From a virus, in IMG/VR virus record IMGVR_UViG_3300027143_000001, positions 1 through 64,000 of that record: a stretch of 64,000 bases of DNA; one strand, given 5' to 3'. This document shows positions 8,872 to 43,245 of the stretch, piece by piece (position 1 is the stretch's first letter; each line of letters starts with the position of its first letter). A program made the position numbers and the translations under genes. The notes under the pieces are model-generated. The model was given only the letters and a program-made list of their open reading frames with translations, did no database searches and had not been told where the DNA came from.

Positions 8872-9224
8872 ATAGCGGCCAAGTAGAGGTGATTAGCCCC
8901 TACGGTCGCATCTATTTGTATACTCATGATCATGCCGCCCGGCTGACCAATGACGTATACTCAGCCCTTGCTGCCGGTCAGCGCTGGGATGATGCAGACT
9001 ATCTTGCAAAGATTGTATTCTGTCATATGGTACCACTGGAGTGCTGGGAACAAGACAGAGGTTACGGTATTGGTACACAGTTGTACGTTGACATAAACCT
9101 GCTGATTACAGTAGACACCGTCAAGCAACAAGTCACCATTACTTCAGCCAAAGACAAGTCGTTCAGATACCAGGGCACATTCCAGGAATTTGTAGAAGAG
9201 TATACCAGAGGTGCACAATTTTAA
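8868..9224 (+). CDS. hypothetical protein
   Basis: IYLYTH...RWDD.DYLA..VF motif; ATG 8868 preferred (8856 possible). Confidence 0.75.
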   Translation: MNSGQVEVISPYGRIYLYTHDHAARLTNDVYSALAAGQRWDDADYLAKIVFCHMVPLECWEQDRGYGIGTQLYVDINLLITVDTVKQQVTITSAKDKSFRYQGTFQEFVEEYTRGAQF

Positions 9225-9256
9225 ACTTTGAAAGTTTAAACTTTTGTATACATTTG
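9222..9256 (+). promoter_or_regulatory. putative promoter with overlapping palindromes upstream of att core and integrase
   Basis: TTTG 9227-9230 plus TACATTTG 9249-9256; palindromes TAAACTTT-G-AAAGTTTA (9222-9238) and AAAGTTTAAACTTT (9231-9244). Confidence 0.5.
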
Positions 9257-9427
9257 TGGAGATACGTGGATGATTGACCAAAAGCTTTTGAAACGCAGTG
9301 TGGTAGCGGGTTTTAACGGGGGTTCGAATCCCTCTCTCTCCGCTGGTTGCACCTAACTCGTTGATAATCAATGGTTTTGTCAGTGTAAAACAGGTCATAA
9401 ACAGTGATTCTTTTGTGGAGTTACGTG
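9253..9427 (+). other. attP-like attachment site
   Basis: Core 9317-9343 CGGGGGTTCGAATCCCTCTCTCTCCGC (T arm and 3' acceptor of a tRNA-Ser); direct repeats TTTGTGGAG(A/T)TACGTG at 9253-9268 and 9412-9427; IHF consensus on minus strand at 9354-9366. Confidence 0.8.
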
Positions 9428-9495
9428 TATGGTTTGAAAATCTGAAAACTGTTCAAAAGCCCTGTCCACGCTATCATAGGTAAAAAATAAACCAT

Positions 9496-10671
9496 ATGAT
9501 AGTATACTTCTTTACAAGACCTGGCAGAAGGGAACAGCGTTACCTGTACTGCAGGCTCACTTACAAAGGTAAGAATGCGGAGTTTAAACTGAACTATGTT
9601 ATAACCCCTCTGGACAACCAGGTGGGTACGTACAAAGCTCAGGTCATGCAGGATCTGATGGAGCTGTTTAACCTACGCCTGATCAGGAACCTTACCACAG
9701 ACCCCCAGGTTATTAAGCATCTGTACCTGAACAAAACGGAGGAGCACTACCTGCTGAAGCTCTATGAGGAATTCATGGACAAGAAGATCAAACCCAAGGT
9801 AGAGAAGAATGACCTGGGTAAAGCCACGCTGGAGAAGTTCATGTGTGTATACGAACACCTCAAAGACTTTCTCAACAGCCGTGGCAAAAGCGACATCAAC
9901 CTGTTGCTGGTTACCGCTTCCTTTGTCGAAGAGTTTGATGACTTTCTCAGGCAGTTCAACGGGCATAACACCGCTATGAAAAACCTTTACAGGCTAAAGG
10001 CTGTGACTACCTATGCCTATAAAGTAAAGCGCTACATCACCGAGGACCCGTTTGCGGGTAAGCTCCTTACCCTTAAGAAAGTATCACCTGTGTACCTCAC
10101 AGAAACGGAGCTTAAGATGCTCATTGCTAAAACGATGGCGATGCCAAGACTGGAGCATGTCAAGGACTTGTTCTTGTTCCAATGCTTTACCGGCCTGGCT
10201 TACGCTGACATGCGCAATCTAAGGAGAGAGTGGATAGATCAGATGATAATCAAAACTACCAGGCAAAAAAGTGGAGAACCAACACTTGCATTTATGTATC
10301 AAACTGCACGCAACATATTGGAAAAATACCACTACAAATTGCCAATAGTTTCAAATCAGAAAATGAATGCGTATCTTAAGGAAATCGCAGACATTTGTTG
10401 CATATCTAAGAAACTCACCACGCACGTAGCACGACACACATACGCAACAACCGTAAACTTAAAAAATGGTGTATCATTGCAAACAGTTCAAAAGTTGTTG
10501 GGTCATGCGACAATCAAACAAACGGAACACTATGCACGTTTGGATGAAAATGACATACGTTTGACGTGCAAAAAGGCAAGTAAGAAAGTAAACAAGCTGT
10601 ACAATTTACCTGCACAGCTACAATTTTTTGACACACAAATTCCAGTTAATGGCAAAGAAGAAAATCAGTGA
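9496..10671 (+). CDS. int: Bacteroidota-type tyrosine integrase
   Basis: N-terminal arm-binding-like region, SAM-like middle, FTGLAYAD, RQKS, SNQKMNAYLKEIA, HVARHT, LLGH, TEHYA (catalytic Tyr). Confidence 0.95.
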   Translation: MIVYFFTRPGRREQRYLYCRLTYKGKNAEFKLNYVITPLDNQVGTYKAQVMQDLMELFNLRLIRNLTTDPQVIKHLYLNKTEEHYLLKLYEEFMDKKIKPKVEKNDLGKATLEKFMCVYEHLKDFLNSRGKSDINLLLVTASFVEEFDDFLRQFNGHNTAMKNLYRLKAVTTYAYKVKRYITEDPFAGKLLTLKKVSPVYLTETELKMLIAKTMAMPRLEHVKDLFLFQCFTGLAYADMRNLRREWIDQMIIKTTRQKSGEPTLAFMYQTARNILEKYHYKLPIVSNQKMNAYLKEIADICCISKKLTTHVARHTYATTVNLKNGVSLQTVQKLLGHATIKQTEHYARLDENDIRLTCKKASKKVNKLYNLPAQLQFFDTQIPVNGKEENQ

Positions 10672-10987
10672 TGTTCAACTCAAAGTTCTAAAGGACATGG
10701 TTACACAAGGCATCACACCAGAAGAGATTAGTAAACATTTTGGCATTGCAGTAAGCAGTGTACACAATTACAAGCGCCAGCTAAAAGATGCCGGTGTAAG
10801 TATTCCTGACATCAGGGGTAAAAAACCTTCTGACAAAGATGGTCCCGCGGTAGAAACACTTCATGCTATTACTCCTGCCAAGAACGCCCCCGGATTTACC
10901 GTGATCATAAACGGTATCTCTATCTACGTAGCCAACTCCGCCAAGCATGTGTCTGTCGGTCCTGACACCCTTACCGTAAGCTTCTAA
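10649..10987 (+). CDS. HTH DNA-binding protein (candidate directionality factor or repressor)
   Basis: GITPEEISKHFGIAVSSVHNYK helix-turn-helix; overlaps int 3' end; ATG 10649 preferred. Confidence 0.8.
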   Translation: MAKKKISDVQLKVLKDMVTQGITPEEISKHFGIAVSSVHNYKRQLKDAGVSIPDIRGKKPSDKDGPAVETLHAITPAKNAPGFTVIINGISIYVANSAKHVSVGPDTLTVSF

Positions 10988-11012
10988 AGTTTTCTCTGCA
11001 TATAAATTGCAC

Positions 11013-11041
11013 AAGCCATCTCCGAAAAGGGATGGCTTTTT
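11013..11041 (+). terminator. intrinsic terminator closing int-HTH unit
   Basis: AAGCCATC-TCCGAAAAGG-GATGGCTT followed by T run. Confidence 0.85.
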
Positions 11042-11078
11042 GCTGTGCATAATTAATTATAGCAATGTAGTGGCAAAG

Positions 11079-11117
11079 ATGTAGAAGTGTTCATATATTT
11101 GTAGACCTACCTCTACA
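11079..11117 (+). promoter_or_regulatory. promoter of replication operon with TGTAGA motifs
   Basis: TATATTTG 11094-11101; TTGTAGAC 11099-11106; CTCTACA 11111-11117. Confidence 0.55.
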
Positions 11118-11157
11118 GTTTTGGTATACTTTAGTGACTAGTTTTTAGACTTGCACT

Positions 11158-37206: not shown

Positions 37207-40200
37207 TTACTGATTTTTCTTCATCTGTTGCACTCTGTCTTCAGGGTCAAAGAAGTCGCGGAAGTTGCGGATACCAGTGAGATCTTCAATGTCTTTGACG
37301 ATCTTGGCATCACCCTCTTCAAAGCGTCCTGCCTTGCGGGTATAGAACGCATCTTTCCATATCTGGTAAGCTACATCCCCGTCATATTCAGGGTCTGGTT
37401 CTTCTCCACCGTTGTACATCATAGCCATGATATAGTTTAAACCATGGGAGCCAAAGCGCTTGATTGCGTTCAACTCTCGTGTATACACTGTCAGTGAAGT
37501 AAAGTTCCTGATGTACTCATCAGATCCCCCACCTAGCGGGAACATGGATGTGGTCTCCCCTTTCACACCCCACAGGACGCGCAGCATGTTTCCTTCCAGC
37601 ATGCTAATCTCTTCATCGTCATCATCCTTTCTTCTCAAATAACTCATGGCTGCCATAGACAACATACTCATAATGGCCATCATGATCATATCACGGCGGG
37701 CCTGCGCAATCTTGCGGGAGTAGAAATCCCCCTGGCGTTCTGAAGTCTGACCTGTGTCCTTGTCCATCACGTCAATCAGGTCCATGTTGCTGCCGAACTT
37801 TCTGGCAAGCTTGTCGCCCAGTACCAAGTGCTTCAGTGTATTTGCAGGACCGTAGTATTGCCATGCCATGGACACTGCTCTCCAGTAACCCACCGCTACC
37901 TCACCTGCCTCCCAGTTAGGTCTCAGGTATCCAAAGCGATTAAGTACTTGAGGAATAAGGTATTTACGGTAGAAAAACATCAGCTTACCCAGTACAGTTT
38001 GTTCAAACTTAGCTTGGTCAGACTGTGCGTAGTTACCCTGTGCACGACGAATCTCTGAGTAGATAATGTTTCTCAGGCGGTTCTCATCTTCTTCACTGTA
38101 CTCAACCATGGGATTACGCGTCAACATACCTGAGCTGTCCTTGTAATACGCCTCGTGTGCAGGGACCAATACATCGTTTCCTTCAGCATCCTTCTCATAC
38201 ACTGCTTTACCGCTGGCATCAAAGCTTGCGATCTTCTTGAACCTGTACTTGTTCATCACAGCATACATCACGGTCAAACCGATTTCTGTATCTCCTTTGT
38301 CCTGGATCATGTTACCCATCTCCTGGATGTTCATGACCTTACCCATCACACGGCGAGTGCTGCCTCCGGTTACGTCGCTGACATACTTGGTATAGTCTTT
38401 CTGCAATGGGTTAATCATGCGGTACAACATAGTGCTTTCGGTCAAGTCGCTGACCTTACCCCAGTCTTTGAAGTAGTTAGCCAAAAATCCGTCATATCCA
38501 TAGATCTTACCCTTGGCCCACATAAAGTCGCCCTGGCTAAAGTGGTCACTCTTGAAGTTACCTGCAGCAATCCAGGTCTGTACGTTACCAGAGATGTAGT
38601 TTTTCATCTGGTTAGCTACGTCAAAACCCATACGGATGAACGCCGTGTACGCCATTACCTGCTTAAGTCGCTTTCTCAGTACGCGTGCCTTGGAGTCTTC
38701 GTTCTCCTCCTGGCCGTATGCAAACTTCTTACGTTCAAACTTCAGCTGGTCAATGATCTTATCCAGCTCACGCTGGCGCACAGACATGTCTACCGGTTTG
38801 CGTTCTCCTGTTACAGGATCTGTCACATAAGTGGCACCAGCTTCAATCTCTCTTTTCAAACGACCGGACATCATCTCCAGATAAGTAATTGCGTTGTCTG
38901 CCATAGGCACAGCGTCTTGCATAGCAATGTTGAAGTTAGCCTCCAACACATACTTGATCATCGCACCGATGGCGTCCTGTGTCTGGATGTTAGGGTCAAG
39001 CTGCTCGGTAAAGCGCATGCGAATACGTCCTCCCAAATCTCCATACACGTTGGATACACGCTCTTGCTCTCCTACTGCTCTCACACTTTTATCCACAAAC
39101 TTGCTCCACTCTTTTTTCAGTCCACCCATGATTCCTTCTTCTGCCAGGTTCTCAATAAGGGACGCAGCATAACCGGGTACCATATATCCAACCTTGCGAC
39201 CCTCCACCTTTTTTTGCAGCTCAAAGAACATGTCCATCATCTTGTTGTAAAACGTCATGACCTTTGGGTCAGCCATCAACTTCTTATAGTTGTCATTGAT
39301 GTTTGGACTATTCTCATAACCAGGCATAATCTGGTAGTGGCCGTTGGCGTCTACTGTTATACCTTTAGGCATAGGGATACCGTCAGGGCTTTGCAAAAAC
39401 GCAGGGTTCTTGGCGCTCTCTCTGATACGCTTGATGCTATACTTTGGATGCGGTAACTCCGTATCCATGTATTGATCATACACAGATGGGTTTACCACCA
39501 CCTCTTCGTTAAATGTCTTTGGTGTTACGTTACCACGCACGTCATAACCTTTCGCAATAGACTGGTAAGGCTGATAGTGGTTCATATTATACCACTGCTC
39601 AAAGTCTGTTTCCACTACGTCAAACTGTACGGTGTAGAAACGCAAGTCTTTCTGCGCTTTCTTGATAACATCAGGATCACCCTTTGCACGTGCTGTGGCA
39701 AGATCATTCTCCGCGTTGATCATATTGCGGTATGCGCTGTCCAGCATGCGGTACTTATCGTCAAATAGTTCTGTGTAGTACTTACTCAACTGACGCATGC
39801 TCAGCATTTCCAGCGTTGCGTTTATTGCGCTTAGCTCCTGCTTTTCATCTTGTGTAAGTTTAGGGGCTGTCTTATCCTCCTGGCGCTCTGCTATGATATC
39901 CTGTATCTCTCCCTCAATTCTATCAAGCTCCTCAATCTCTTCAGCCTGCATGTACTTAGGATTGAACCTTCCTGCTGCATCTTTGTGTGGACGCATAATG
40001 GAACGTTTTTCCTCCATAAGTTTTTGGATACGATCGTCTGTACCAAATATGGCAGCACGCGCCTCATACAGTTCAGCCATCTTCTCATACCACTCAGCCT
40101 TTGGACGGTTAATGGTATTCTCTTTCAACCACTTGGCCCACATGTCAGGGTCATCAGCGTATCTGTTGAATGCGTTATCATACATACGCTTGAACAAACC

Positions 40201-43200
40201 TTCATTGGGTATAAACTCAAACAGTTTGTCAAACTCCTGCATGTAACGCGCATAGTCTGGGTTACGCTTCTTGGCCTCTGCCTTCAGCTTCTTGATCTCT
40301 ACATTGATCTCTTTTACACGGTCCAGGTCAGACTCCTCCAGCAACACTTCGTTGCGGGCACCTACCTGGTGCATGATCACCTGGATCTCCAGATACTTCT
40401 TCTGCATCTCGTCGCGGATGTCCTGAGGCAGAAGCTGCTGTAACTTATAGTAAGAATCTACATAAGGTAAGCTGGCATTCTTTTGCAGCCATGTCATGTA
40501 GTTGTCTACTTCCTTTTCACGCTCGCGCTTTTTATCCAAGTACGTTTTCTCCAGCGTTTTCATATCACGCTCTTTTTCACGCATCTCCTTTTCCAACTTA
40601 GTGTTGGTAGGATCTGCAGCCAGTGCTTTGGCAGCTTTGCTGTACACACTGAATGAAGCAATGTAATTGCGGTTGGCATCATACACCTGCTTATTCATCT
40701 CACGCATATTTGTAGAATACGCACGGTATGTCTGCTCGTATGCCTCACTCATGGGTTTGGTAAAGTTGAGCACACGTTTTTCTATTGTCTTACCGCTTTT
40801 TGAATCCACCCATTGTACTGTTCTCCATTCGCTTACAAGCTTGTTAAGATCGCCAATACTCATGGATTTCAGTAGCTCATCACGTGCGTTGTCAAAATCA
40901 AGGTTAACCATATTACGCATGGCTTCACGCTGGGCGTTGGCCTGGGCGCGCTTGAACATCTGTACATATGCACTAACAATCATGTTACTGTCACTCACAC
41001 CTGCAATCAGCTCTCCACCGGATACAATGTTACCAAGACCTGCAAACGCGCTGTTGTTGAAAATATCTTTAGACGCCATGTGAAAATCACTGTTGGGGTC
41101 TGTGACACCCTCGATGAACTTTCTCAAGTCTGCATCATCAAATGACACACCTGTCTCCAGGTATTGCTCTAGGTTCTTGATCTGTATTTCCAGTGATGTC
41201 ATCTCGCCTACCAGGCTGTTACCATTGGCACCCAGCTTCTCCGCAATCTTCTCCTTATACTCTTTACTCAAAAACGACAATGTTGTATTCTTTAGCCAAG
41301 GCATCACACCCGCAAACTCGCCTTTTTGTAACTTGGCAAGCTTGGCTTTCAGGGCATTGATCTTGGGTATCAAACTTTCTTCTGACTGACGTTTGACTCC
41401 CTCAAAGGTTTTCTCTCCCATCATCTTCGCAATCTCTACCAGGTTCTCTAGTCCAGCCTCAGAAAAGTTTCCTTCAATGCGGGCATTAGCCAGCTCCATA
41501 GATTGCAACTTCTTGCTGATCTCAGAGTCCAACCCCAGCTTTTCTTTATTGGCAGGATTACGACGGCCCTCATCCACTATCTCTTTCAGTGCCATGATTA
41601 CACTCCACATCCCGCGGGACTTGTTGTACACCATACCTATCTGAGACTTGTGACGGTTCTTCTCCTTCTGGTTGGTTGCGTTCTTTAGTCCAGCAATAGC
41701 CACGTCACTGGATTCTTCCAGCTGGATCAAGTCGTTTTGCAGGTAGTCCAATACCAGGGAAAAGTTTACACTGGCTGAAGCGTCCTGTCTGGCCAGGATA
41801 TCATCAAAGCTGCGCAGTGTTTCTCTGCGGTCAGCCAATACCTTTCTGCGCTCCGGGTCTTTGTTTTCAGACTTCTCCAGGTCCGCAATCTGTTTGATGA
41901 TGTCATCCAGTTCTCTTTTTACTGCGTTCTTCAACGCGGCCATCAAACGCTCCATGCCTGCCTTTGAAGGTTCAAAGTCAAAAATGTTAGCTTTCTTCTT
42001 AGCCTCCTCTGTCTTAGCAGAACCAGGATAAGGTACTTCCTCATCAATGATACGACGCATGTCTGCAATACGCTGGTCACTGGTGCTAAGTTTGGTCTCT
42101 AACTCATAGTTAGTACCGGGCTGCAGTACACCGCGGGCGTAATCGTAGTAGTTATCCTTGTTAAATATGTGCAGGTTAGCTGCACGGTAACTTCCGCTGT
42201 CCTGATCTGTCTCATACAACAATGCTACAATCTGGCTTTTGATGGTGTTGATACCATGCTGGGCCAGAATGTTTTCATACGTCTTCAGCTGCAAGGTCCA
42301 TGTGTCATACGCTGTACGGTATTGTTTCTTTAGTAATCTCAGCGTACCTGCTTTACCATCAACCTTCATGTTTTTATGTGCCAGATGCAACATCACAGCA
42401 GCCTTATCCATGTACGTTTCTCCTGTAACAGGGTCAGTCACGGTAGTACCGCTCACTTTCTTTGTCTTAAAGTCAAAGATCTCTACGTTACCATCAGAGT
42501 CAATAAGCAACATGTCTAGTCGACCAATCACCATGCTACCACTCTTGGTCATACCGGTAACGGTAATCTCTGGCAGGATCATGTAGTTTTCGTCTGCTTT
42601 GGCAGTTACCTGGATCGCAATACGCGTAGCCAGGTTAAACATCATGTCTTTAGGAAAATCCTTTACTTCTTTTTTCTTGCCCTCTACGTAGAACTTCTCA
42701 TAGCGCTTCTCAAAGAAATCACGTGTCAGTACCTGAGAGATGTTACGACCGGTGCTTAGTGCATCCTGCTGTGCAAGTTCAATCACTTCATGCATAAAGA
42801 TTCCAAACTCTTTGAACTCCTCATACTTGCTGGGATCACCCTTGAAGTCTGCGGAACCGAGCAGGTTGGATACGCTTACGGTCTTTACAGTCTGCTCACC
42901 ACGAGCTGCCTTATCAATGTTATCCTCAAGGAATCTCTGATAAGAACGGTTCATATTGATGAGCGTCTGCAGTTGTGCATTCTGTGCATCTGTACCGCGG
43001 AGCATCATGTTCTCCAGGTGCTTCTCCTGCTGCTTGGCACGTATGAGTTTAAACTCATCGCTGGACAGTGAGATCTGTTCATCTTTCTCCTGGGTAGGCA
43101 GACTTTGCAAAAGTTTGTGTGCGGTGGCTACATCAGGCACCTCAAAGTTGTTCATTTTGTAGACCGCTAGTGCATCACCCTCGCTGCCAAGTGCGGCAAC

Positions 43201-43245
43201 AAGGGATTTCCATGCGGGGTCGTTAGGGTTTGGGCAAGAGCTCAT
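37207..43245 (-). CDS. giant virion cargo protein with N-terminal PD-(D/E)XK nuclease-like domain
   Basis: G..MH, PE, GRLDML...IFDFKT, LQL..Y; long helical body; hydrophobic C-terminal segment. Confidence 0.8.
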   Translation of the reverse strand: MSSCPNPNDPAWKSLVAALGSEGDALAVYKMNNFEVPDVATAHKLLQSLPTQEKDEQISLSSDEFKLIRAKQQEKHLENMMLRGTDAQNAQLQTLINMNRSYQRFLEDNIDKAARGEQTVKTVSVSNLLGSADFKGDPSKYEEFKEFGIFMHEVIELAQQDALSTGRNISQVLTRDFFEKRYEKFYVEGKKKEVKDFPKDMMFNLATRIAIQVTAKADENYMILPEITVTGMTKSGSMVIGRLDMLLIDSDGNVEIFDFKTKKVSGTTVTDPVTGETYMDKAAVMLHLAHKNMKVDGKAGTLRLLKKQYRTAYDTWTLQLKTYENILAQHGINTIKSQIVALLYETDQDSGSYRAANLHIFNKDNYYDYARGVLQPGTNYELETKLSTSDQRIADMRRIIDEEVPYPGSAKTEEAKKKANIFDFEPSKAGMERLMAALKNAVKRELDDIIKQIADLEKSENKDPERRKVLADRRETLRSFDDILARQDASASVNFSLVLDYLQNDLIQLEESSDVAIAGLKNATNQKEKNRHKSQIGMVYNKSRGMWSVIMALKEIVDEGRRNPANKEKLGLDSEISKKLQSMELANARIEGNFSEAGLENLVEIAKMMGEKTFEGVKRQSEESLIPKINALKAKLAKLQKGEFAGVMPWLKNTTLSFLSKEYKEKIAEKLGANGNSLVGEMTSLEIQIKNLEQYLETGVSFDDADLRKFIEGVTDPNSDFHMASKDIFNNSAFAGLGNIVSGGELIAGVSDSNMIVSAYVQMFKRAQANAQREAMRNMVNLDFDNARDELLKSMSIGDLNKLVSEWRTVQWVDSKSGKTIEKRVLNFTKPMSEAYEQTYRAYSTNMREMNKQVYDANRNYIASFSVYSKAAKALAADPTNTKLEKEMREKERDMKTLEKTYLDKKREREKEVDNYMTWLQKNASLPYVDSYYKLQQLLPQDIRDEMQKKYLEIQVIMHQVGARNEVLLEESDLDRVKEINVEIKKLKAEAKKRNPDYARYMQEFDKLFEFIPNEGLFKRMYDNAFNRYADDPDMWAKWLKENTINRPKAEWYEKMAELYEARAAIFGTDDRIQKLMEEKRSIMRPHKDAAGRFNPKYMQAEEIEELDRIEGEIQDIIAERQEDKTAPKLTQDEKQELSAINATLEMLSMRQLSKYYTELFDDKYRMLDSAYRNMINAENDLATARAKGDPDVIKKAQKDLRFYTVQFDVVETDFEQWYNMNHYQPYQSIAKGYDVRGNVTPKTFNEEVVVNPSVYDQYMDTELPHPKYSIKRIRESAKNPAFLQSPDGIPMPKGITVDANGHYQIMPGYENSPNINDNYKKLMADPKVMTFYNKMMDMFFELQKKVEGRKVGYMVPGYAASLIENLAEEGIMGGLKKEWSKFVDKSVRAVGEQERVSNVYGDLGGRIRMRFTEQLDPNIQTQDAIGAMIKYVLEANFNIAMQDAVPMADNAITYLEMMSGRLKREIEAGATYVTDPVTGERKPVDMSVRQRELDKIIDQLKFERKKFAYGQEENEDSKARVLRKRLKQVMAYTAFIRMGFDVANQMKNYISGNVQTWIAAGNFKSDHFSQGDFMWAKGKIYGYDGFLANYFKDWGKVSDLTESTMLYRMINPLQKDYTKYVSDVTGGSTRRVMGKVMNIQEMGNMIQDKGDTEIGLTVMYAVMNKYRFKKIASFDASGKAVYEKDAEGNDVLVPAHEAYYKDSSGMLTRNPMVEYSEEDENRLRNIIYSEIRRAQGNYAQSDQAKFEQTVLGKLMFFYRKYLIPQVLNRFGYLRPNWEAGEVAVGYWRAVSMAWQYYGPANTLKHLVLGDKLARKFGSNMDLIDVMDKDTGQTSERQGDFYSRKIAQARRDMIMMAIMSMLSMAAMSYLRRKDDDDEEISMLEGNMLRVLWGVKGETTSMFPLGGGSDEYIRNFTSLTVYTRELNAIKRFGSHGLNYIMAMMYNGGEEPDPEYDGDVAYQIWKDAFYTRKAGRFEEGDAKIVKDIEDLTGIRNFRDFFDPEDRVQQMKKNQ

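Follow-up and report, generated by a model that had tools for sequence, protein, structure and literature searches.

The window analysed here is the first 64 kb of the IMG/VR virus record IMGVR_UViG_3300027143_000001, a record of 109,118 b that is classed as linear and 85% complete. Between the genes for two proteins of 122 and 94 amino acids (aa), it contains a short unit (9253–11045) in which a phage attachment site (attP), a tyrosine integrase gene (int) and a gene for a helix-turn-helix (HTH) protein follow one another and are closed by a terminator (Table 1). We consider it likely that this unit is an optional site-specific integration cassette, consisting of attP, int and the HTH gene, of a distant freshwater crAss-like phage.

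Table 1. Features of the attP–int–HTH unit, with positions given in the window
Feature	Position	Strand	Remarks
Left (P) arm repeat, candidate arm-type integrase binding site	9253–9279	+	direct repeat of 9412–9438
Conserved spacer, left arm to core	9291–9316	+	GAAACGCAG..GGTTTTAA
attP core, presumed crossover region	9317–9343	+	CGGGGGTTCGAATCCCTCTCTCTCCGC, 27-nt copy of a tRNA-Ser gene 3' end
Palindrome TTGATAATCAA	9361–9371	.	overlaps the WATCAANNNNTTR match; joint feature 9354–9371
Right (P') arm repeat	9412–9438	+	direct repeat of 9253–9279
Tyrosine integrase, 391 aa	9496–10671	+	PF13102, PF00589, phrog_1 integrase
HTH protein, 112 aa, candidate directionality factor or regulator	10649–10987	+	true start ATG 10649
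Intrinsic terminator closing the int–HTH unit	11013–11045	+	10-bp stem 11013–11038, then T-run

The attachment site and its two genes

The attP core contains, in order, a T-stem strand, the T-loop, the second T-stem strand, the 3' acceptor strand TCTCTCC and the discriminator G. A preliminary description of this DNA, made from its letters, had interpreted the core as the 3' end of a tRNA-Ser gene, and this interpretation holds. Six loci contain annotated tRNA-Ser genes whose 3' ends match a 23-mer of the core exactly, identity between the phage and tRNA-Ser(TGA) starts at 9317 in an alignment, and an even sample of 401 Bacteroidota genomes includes 30 with the exact 27-mer (0 for the reversed control). 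Comparison with Bacteroidota tRNA-Ser genes had also been put forward as a way to predict the host. This second use was rejected, because another phylum has the exact 27-mer as well, in 8 of 301 genomes, and the host therefore cannot be named from the core alone. A 25-mer within the core occurs a single time in the window (0 matches in 100 shuffles) and a single time across the whole record. The earlier statement that there is no second core copy thus extends to all 109 kb, and it also applies to G001, a complete related genome.

Direct repeats lie on both sides of the core. The 16-bp pair that had been pointed out is indeed present, with 15 of 16 positions identical between 9253–9268 and 9412–9427, and the similarity continues in an extended form (9248–9275 and 9407–9434, 23/28). 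Only two copies of the 13-mer GTGGAGWTACGTG of these arm repeats exist in 109 kb, both of them at attP. The repeat is found at the matching relative position beside the core in the related loci L109, L110, L195 and L005; the arms keep their position in five related attP regions, and the left one is retained even in L190, a relative without int. The spacer that joins the left arm to the core is likewise conserved in L109, L110 and L190 (25–28 of 36 positions identical over 9281–9316), although it is not tRNA sequence.

The left arm repeat overlaps a promoter-like TAnnTTTG box, and the right one probably overlaps the int promoter. Because these are −7 boxes of the Bacteroidota type, the repeats may serve two roles, and a double function as promoter and arm site is possible. 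A function as promoters only was considered and not adopted, as the part past the TTTG box is repeated solely at attP and its position is conserved in relatives.

The palindrome on the 3' side of the core occurs once in the 109-kb genome. In L109, L110 and L005 it is conserved at a distance of about 19 nt from the core, likewise on the 3' side, and it is also found 3' of the core in G001. The perfect WATCAANNNNTTR site mentioned in the preliminary description is present as one match on the minus strand (9354–9366). Its value as evidence is weak, because this motif is over-represented in the window (11 sites, compared with 3.45 expected from shuffles) and a single match to the consensus of integration host factor (IHF) then says little. 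The joint palindrome/WATCAANNNNTTR region could be where an accessory protein, DNA-bending or HTH, binds. Further upstream, a hairpin (TTTAAACTTTGAAAGTTTAAAC, 9221–9243) extends over the stop codon of the 122-aa gene and is conserved in the int-bearing relatives of the slot and in the int-less L190.

The integrase had been called intact, and the 391-aa reading frame agrees with this. The SAM-like core-binding domain PF13102 covers residues 92–187 (E 6.5e-12), PF00589 is matched at E 9e-11, and the catalytic set R218, K258, H310, R313, H337 and Y346 is invariant in 26 relatives. The best solved structure is that of XerA (5hxy), with whose Arg I R218 aligns. In profile–profile comparison (hhalign, probability 100%), the protein aligns from residue 1 and over its full length with PF17293-bearing Bacteroidota integrases, interrupted by a gap of about 15 residues. 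The ribosome-binding region and start codon of int are bracketed by an inverted repeat (CTATCATAG / CATATGATAG, 9471–9507), of which L109 has a longer version and which could limit translation of the gene.

The HTH gene overlaps int by 23 nt. Pfam gave weak matches of its product to HTH_23 and DUF2481, generic for HTH proteins and below the cut-offs. The structure model consists of three helices and a four-strand C-terminal part (predicted local distance difference test, pLDDT, 65.7), and a Foldseek search with this model returned no match at E <0.1. Wherever the locus of an int-bearing relative extends that far, the gene is present, and its best 120 relatives are all on phage-sized contigs. 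The terminator behind the two genes is as the preliminary description had stated. There is no foreign signature in the GC content.

Related loci and the carrier phage

Relatives of the slot between the 122-aa and 94-aa genes were collected from IMG/VR contigs via the downstream helicase gene. About 30 related loci span the slot. In most of them it is empty, with a gap of 100–270 nt, and int and HTH are there in a minority. Neither gene was found anywhere in five genomes that are 96–100% complete, while the HTH gene was recovered from 3/3 int-bearing records used as a positive control. The survey of int in related phages suggested earlier thus reveals the same layout recurring at the slot with cores from tRNA-Ser, transfer-messenger RNA (tmRNA) and tRNA-Asp, and a cassette that is optional.

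The int-bearing relatives differ in instructive ways. L109 has the upstream gene and the arm repeats in common with the window and an integrase that is 66% identical; its core is identical at 27/27 positions within flanks of 48–78% identity. On the 123.8-kb contig of L110, the backbone genes are 76–96% identical to those of the phage, int and HTH are 52% and 49% identical, respectively, and the core is the 3' end of tmRNA. G001, a 136-kb genome with terminal repeats and a TerL (terminase large subunit) that is 63% identical, has a single-copy core between direct repeats that comes from the 3' end of tRNA-Asp; the core of L195 is a tRNA-Asp 3' end as well. Contigs that encode the 66–68% identical integrase relatives are 121–127 kb long. 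In the integrase tree, the phage proteins form one clade (Shimodaira–Hasegawa-like approximate likelihood ratio test, SH-aLRT, 100) that is separate from 81 bacterial integrases, and the Ser, tmRNA and Asp core types all fall within it.

The nearest backbone relative, L190 (record G411, 4755–4880), illustrates the reverse process. The left arm is retained and, with it, the conserved spacer. Both genes are missing, as are the right arm and the 3' part of the core, and the sequence passes from within the core to the position immediately behind the HTH stop, where the terminator follows directly. This junction is a clean deletion scar. Taken together, the comparisons make it probable that attP, int and HTH constitute an optional integration cassette that can switch its target.

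In the same tree, a Bacteroidota-type integrase (39% identical) from L075, a metagenome-assembled genome labelled Candidatus Peribacteria, of the candidate phyla radiation (CPR), clusters with uncultured Bacteroidetes sequences. Its placement points to mis-binning or transfer.

The carrier had been described as a crAss-like phage with a virion RNA polymerase, and the assignment rests on four kinds of match. TerL matches exclusively crAss-like phages (about 25% identity), the portal and major head (capsid) proteins match PHROG families, and residues ~2675–2950 of a 4198-aa open reading frame (ORF), including DFDVD, match crAss genes for the 'RNAP catalytic subunit' in 68 crAss-like records; this ORF thereby contains a homologue of the virion RNA polymerase. 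As whole proteins, the giant ORFs had no PHROG match and no sequence match in the PDB. A search of GenBank phage DNA with the phage sequence yielded a single match of 125 b, to a Bohxovirus. The phage DNA is present in 24 riverine and freshwater runs among those listed, and the relatives of its TerL amount to 4,596 clusters. These matches place the phage in what appears to be a distant, environmental crAss-like lineage of rivers and freshwater, with remote similarity to other crAss-like phages (~25% in TerL).

Other genes of the phage and its relatives deserve mention. A 2012-aa ORF on the minus strand (37207–43245) adjoins the giant RNA polymerase gene and has an N-terminal match to PD-(D/E)XK nucleases (E 1e-5). 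One cluster of TerL relatives, P0200, has 1082 aa and contains PF05203, which suggests that the terminase of this related phage has acquired an intein or a homing-endonuclease insertion. In a tRNA-like gene at 6549–6638, the acceptor stem and the D and T arms are normal, and about 30 nt stand in place of a normal anticodon arm; ARAGORN called it 'tRNA-Tyr (ata)', and it scores 44.3 bits with the Rfam tRNA model.

Integration and competing explanations

The habits of the integrase family suggest how the cassette may work. Among the matches listed, the nearest bacterial relatives are 31–43% identical and nearly all come from Bacteroidota. The related loci, most of them bacterial, have a tRNA or tmRNA gene whose end lies 206–525 nt upstream of int on the same strand in 64 of 87 cases (targets: Ser 38, Pro 8, Asp 7, tmRNA 6), which bears out the likeness to tRNA-targeting Bacteroidota elements that had been claimed for this locus. 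The order in the phage, core, then 152 nt, then int, is what would be expected of an attP that rebuilds the tRNA at attL.

On this basis, we propose that the integrase belongs to the tRNA-targeting family of Bacteroidota tyrosine recombinases and recognises two kinds of site (heterobivalent). Binding to the direct repeats of the two arms would fall to its N-terminal part. The catalytic part would work on the core, the sequence that equals the tRNA-Ser 3' end, with crossover presumably taking place within it. After circularisation, the phage genome would recombine with a tRNA-Ser gene of the host and thereby become inserted; the phage copy would then restore the 3' end of the tRNA, and int would be located directly downstream of the tRNA. 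The HTH protein, gained and lost together with int, may bind the attP arm, possibly at TTGATAATCAA, and either steer excision or regulate the unit. It is also the sole candidate for an immunity repressor or lysis–lysogeny switch. The phage can thus probably insert into a host chromosome, and a lysogenic state would follow from the same reasoning.

The copy in the window is the unintegrated form, as the preliminary description had said, because contigs of several independent runs bridge attP without interruption. A search for contigs that join the phage to a full tRNA-Ser gene, which had been suggested earlier, was carried out on the attP site with Logan contigs of four runs. It came out negative, with no loose end at the core, no junction and no attL or attR; contigs drop rare variants, so absence is not demonstrated by this result. 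In run X23, the summed contig depth over 9312–9462 is 20.6, compared with about 5 on either side. This excess could come from host tRNA-Ser contigs or from something joined at the core.

A number of points, the missing junctions among them, weigh against an active integration cassette. The record holds only 85% of the phage genome. The TerL of the lineage was not found in the 401 sampled Bacteroidota genomes, in which there was no prophage of it, and no contig above 137 kb was found among the integrase relatives of at least 41% identity, the best 120 TerL relatives or the best 120 HTH relatives. In integrase residues 1–100, Pfam detected no arm-binding domain (PF17293), even at E values up to 10. 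The arm repeats coincide with promoter-like TAnnTTTG boxes, and a third, weaker copy is located ahead of the next gene (11093–11120). No repressor family (CI-like) was recognised among ten neighbouring ORFs. Finally, the cassette is missing from most relatives, so that it is not essential and may be heading for loss.

Several of these observations would fit a relic, that is, a lineage that once integrated, is now lytic and carries an unused attP–int–HTH unit drifting to loss. The empty slot in most of the ~30 loci, the scar in L190/G411, the lack of prophages in the Bacteroidota genomes and of chromosomal contigs among the listed relatives, and the neighbourhood without a recognised repressor all point in this direction. 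We regard this explanation as unlikely, as int and HTH are intact ORFs in every int-bearing relative whose locus covers them, and the catalytic residues show no change in 26 sequences. The complete core has been kept between phages whose flanks have diverged, and it differs by integrase lineage (Ser, tmRNA or Asp), variation for which selection for function is needed. Still less probable is a separate small mobile element that is inserted in the phage and stands outside its life cycle. This would account for the cassette-like presence and absence at one slot, and int and HTH have diverged between near relatives far more than the flanking genes, which suggests exchange of the unit. Against it, the core is present once in the 109-kb record and once in G001, a complete genome, which leaves no second end to bound an element, and the left arm still stands in the int-less L190. 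The unit is 1.8 kb long without a mobilisation or replication gene, its integrase belongs to a phage clade apart from those of bacterial elements, and the HTH family is confined to phage-sized contigs (best 120 relatives).

The least probable explanation, to which we give very little weight, is that the tRNA-like stretch is a decayed phage tRNA gene and that the integrase resolves multimers or inverts DNA without chromosomal integration. It draws on a phage tRNA cluster 3 kb upstream and on MAFFT, which could place the 86 nt of 9258–9343 along whole tRNA-Ser genes. A whole degenerate tRNA at this position was rejected, as the Rfam tRNA model had no match to 9258–9343 even at E values up to 10, and in L110 no co-variation links the left repeat to the acceptor strand. 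Moreover, the 3' ends of three different host RNAs occupy the same spot in relatives, and the relatives of the integrase, mostly bacterial, adjoin tRNA genes.

Known systems and significance

An integration cassette of this kind resembles both lambda-type integration and that of the NBU and CTnDOT elements, and its integrase is a member of the protein family of the latter. IntDOT (CTnDOT), IntN1 (NBU1) and IntN2 (NBU2) have the combination of PF13102 and PF00589 in common with the phage integrase. NBU2 uses the 3' end of a tRNA-Ser gene and NBU1 that of a tRNA-Leu gene. In Bacteroidota elements, int is found directly downstream of a tRNA gene, most often tRNA-Ser, and in the phage cassette it follows the copy of a tRNA-Ser 3' end; NBU-type elements have been described as adjoining a Ser-tRNA gene (PMC13597742). 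The differences are also clear. Compared with the bacterial members, the phage integrase is only 31–43% identical (among the matches listed) and belongs to a separate clade, and its N-terminal domain is about 15 residues shorter and is not detected by Pfam. The carrier is a phage of ~120 kb and no transposon, and the partner protein comes from an HTH family that was seen on phage-sized contigs only (best 120 relatives).

The comparison with a lambda-type attP, which had been drawn before, is justified by a core that equals the 3' end of a host gene and by arm repeats on both sides. As in lambda, the core is common to the host site, direct arm repeats flank it at ~65–70 nt, there is a possible site for a bending protein, int is located beside attP, and a small accessory DNA-binding gene belongs to the same unit. 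The likeness is one of design and not of close sequence, and the PDB matches of the phage integrase are generic tyrosine recombinases. Unlike in lambda, the accessory gene is downstream of int and overlaps it, and the target is the end of a tRNA gene. Among annotated GenBank phages, the best matches to the integrase come from temperate Bacteroidota phages (Bacteroides LoVEphage, BI-TP1 and Flavobacterium FPSV; 24–31% identity), which are distant in sequence and are not crAss-like. None of the crAss-like records in GenBank matched it.

It is the carrier that is unusual. According to reviews, crAss-like phages do not lysogenise and are strictly lytic or, at most, plasmid-like (PMC10136315, PMC10983915); the preliminary description had likewise noted that the best-studied crAss-like isolates lack integrases, and a search for integrases in epsilon crAss-like phages found none (PMC11054128). 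Here, an environmental crAss-like branch has an integration module that looks complete. On a near-constant phage backbone, this module is optional, has been re-targeted and can be removed by clean deletion. A further-reaching interpretation, which we offer only tentatively and which may well prove wrong, is that a very abundant freshwater crAss-like lineage (the 4,596 TerL clusters) uses attP–int–HTH as a plug-in lysogeny cassette that is gained, lost and re-targeted (to tRNA-Ser, tmRNA or tRNA-Asp) at one fixed slot. The HTH protein might then be a new directionality or immunity factor, able to silence a phage whose injected virion RNA polymerase transcribes the early genes.

The integrase, along with the three attP variants that occur naturally, could be put to use for site-specific integration in environmental Bacteroidota. 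The parts most worth attention are the optional cassette with its switching target and the HTH partner. Together they provide a testable case for whether phages with their own virion RNA polymerase can lysogenise and which factor silences such phages, as well as for how integration specificity evolves.

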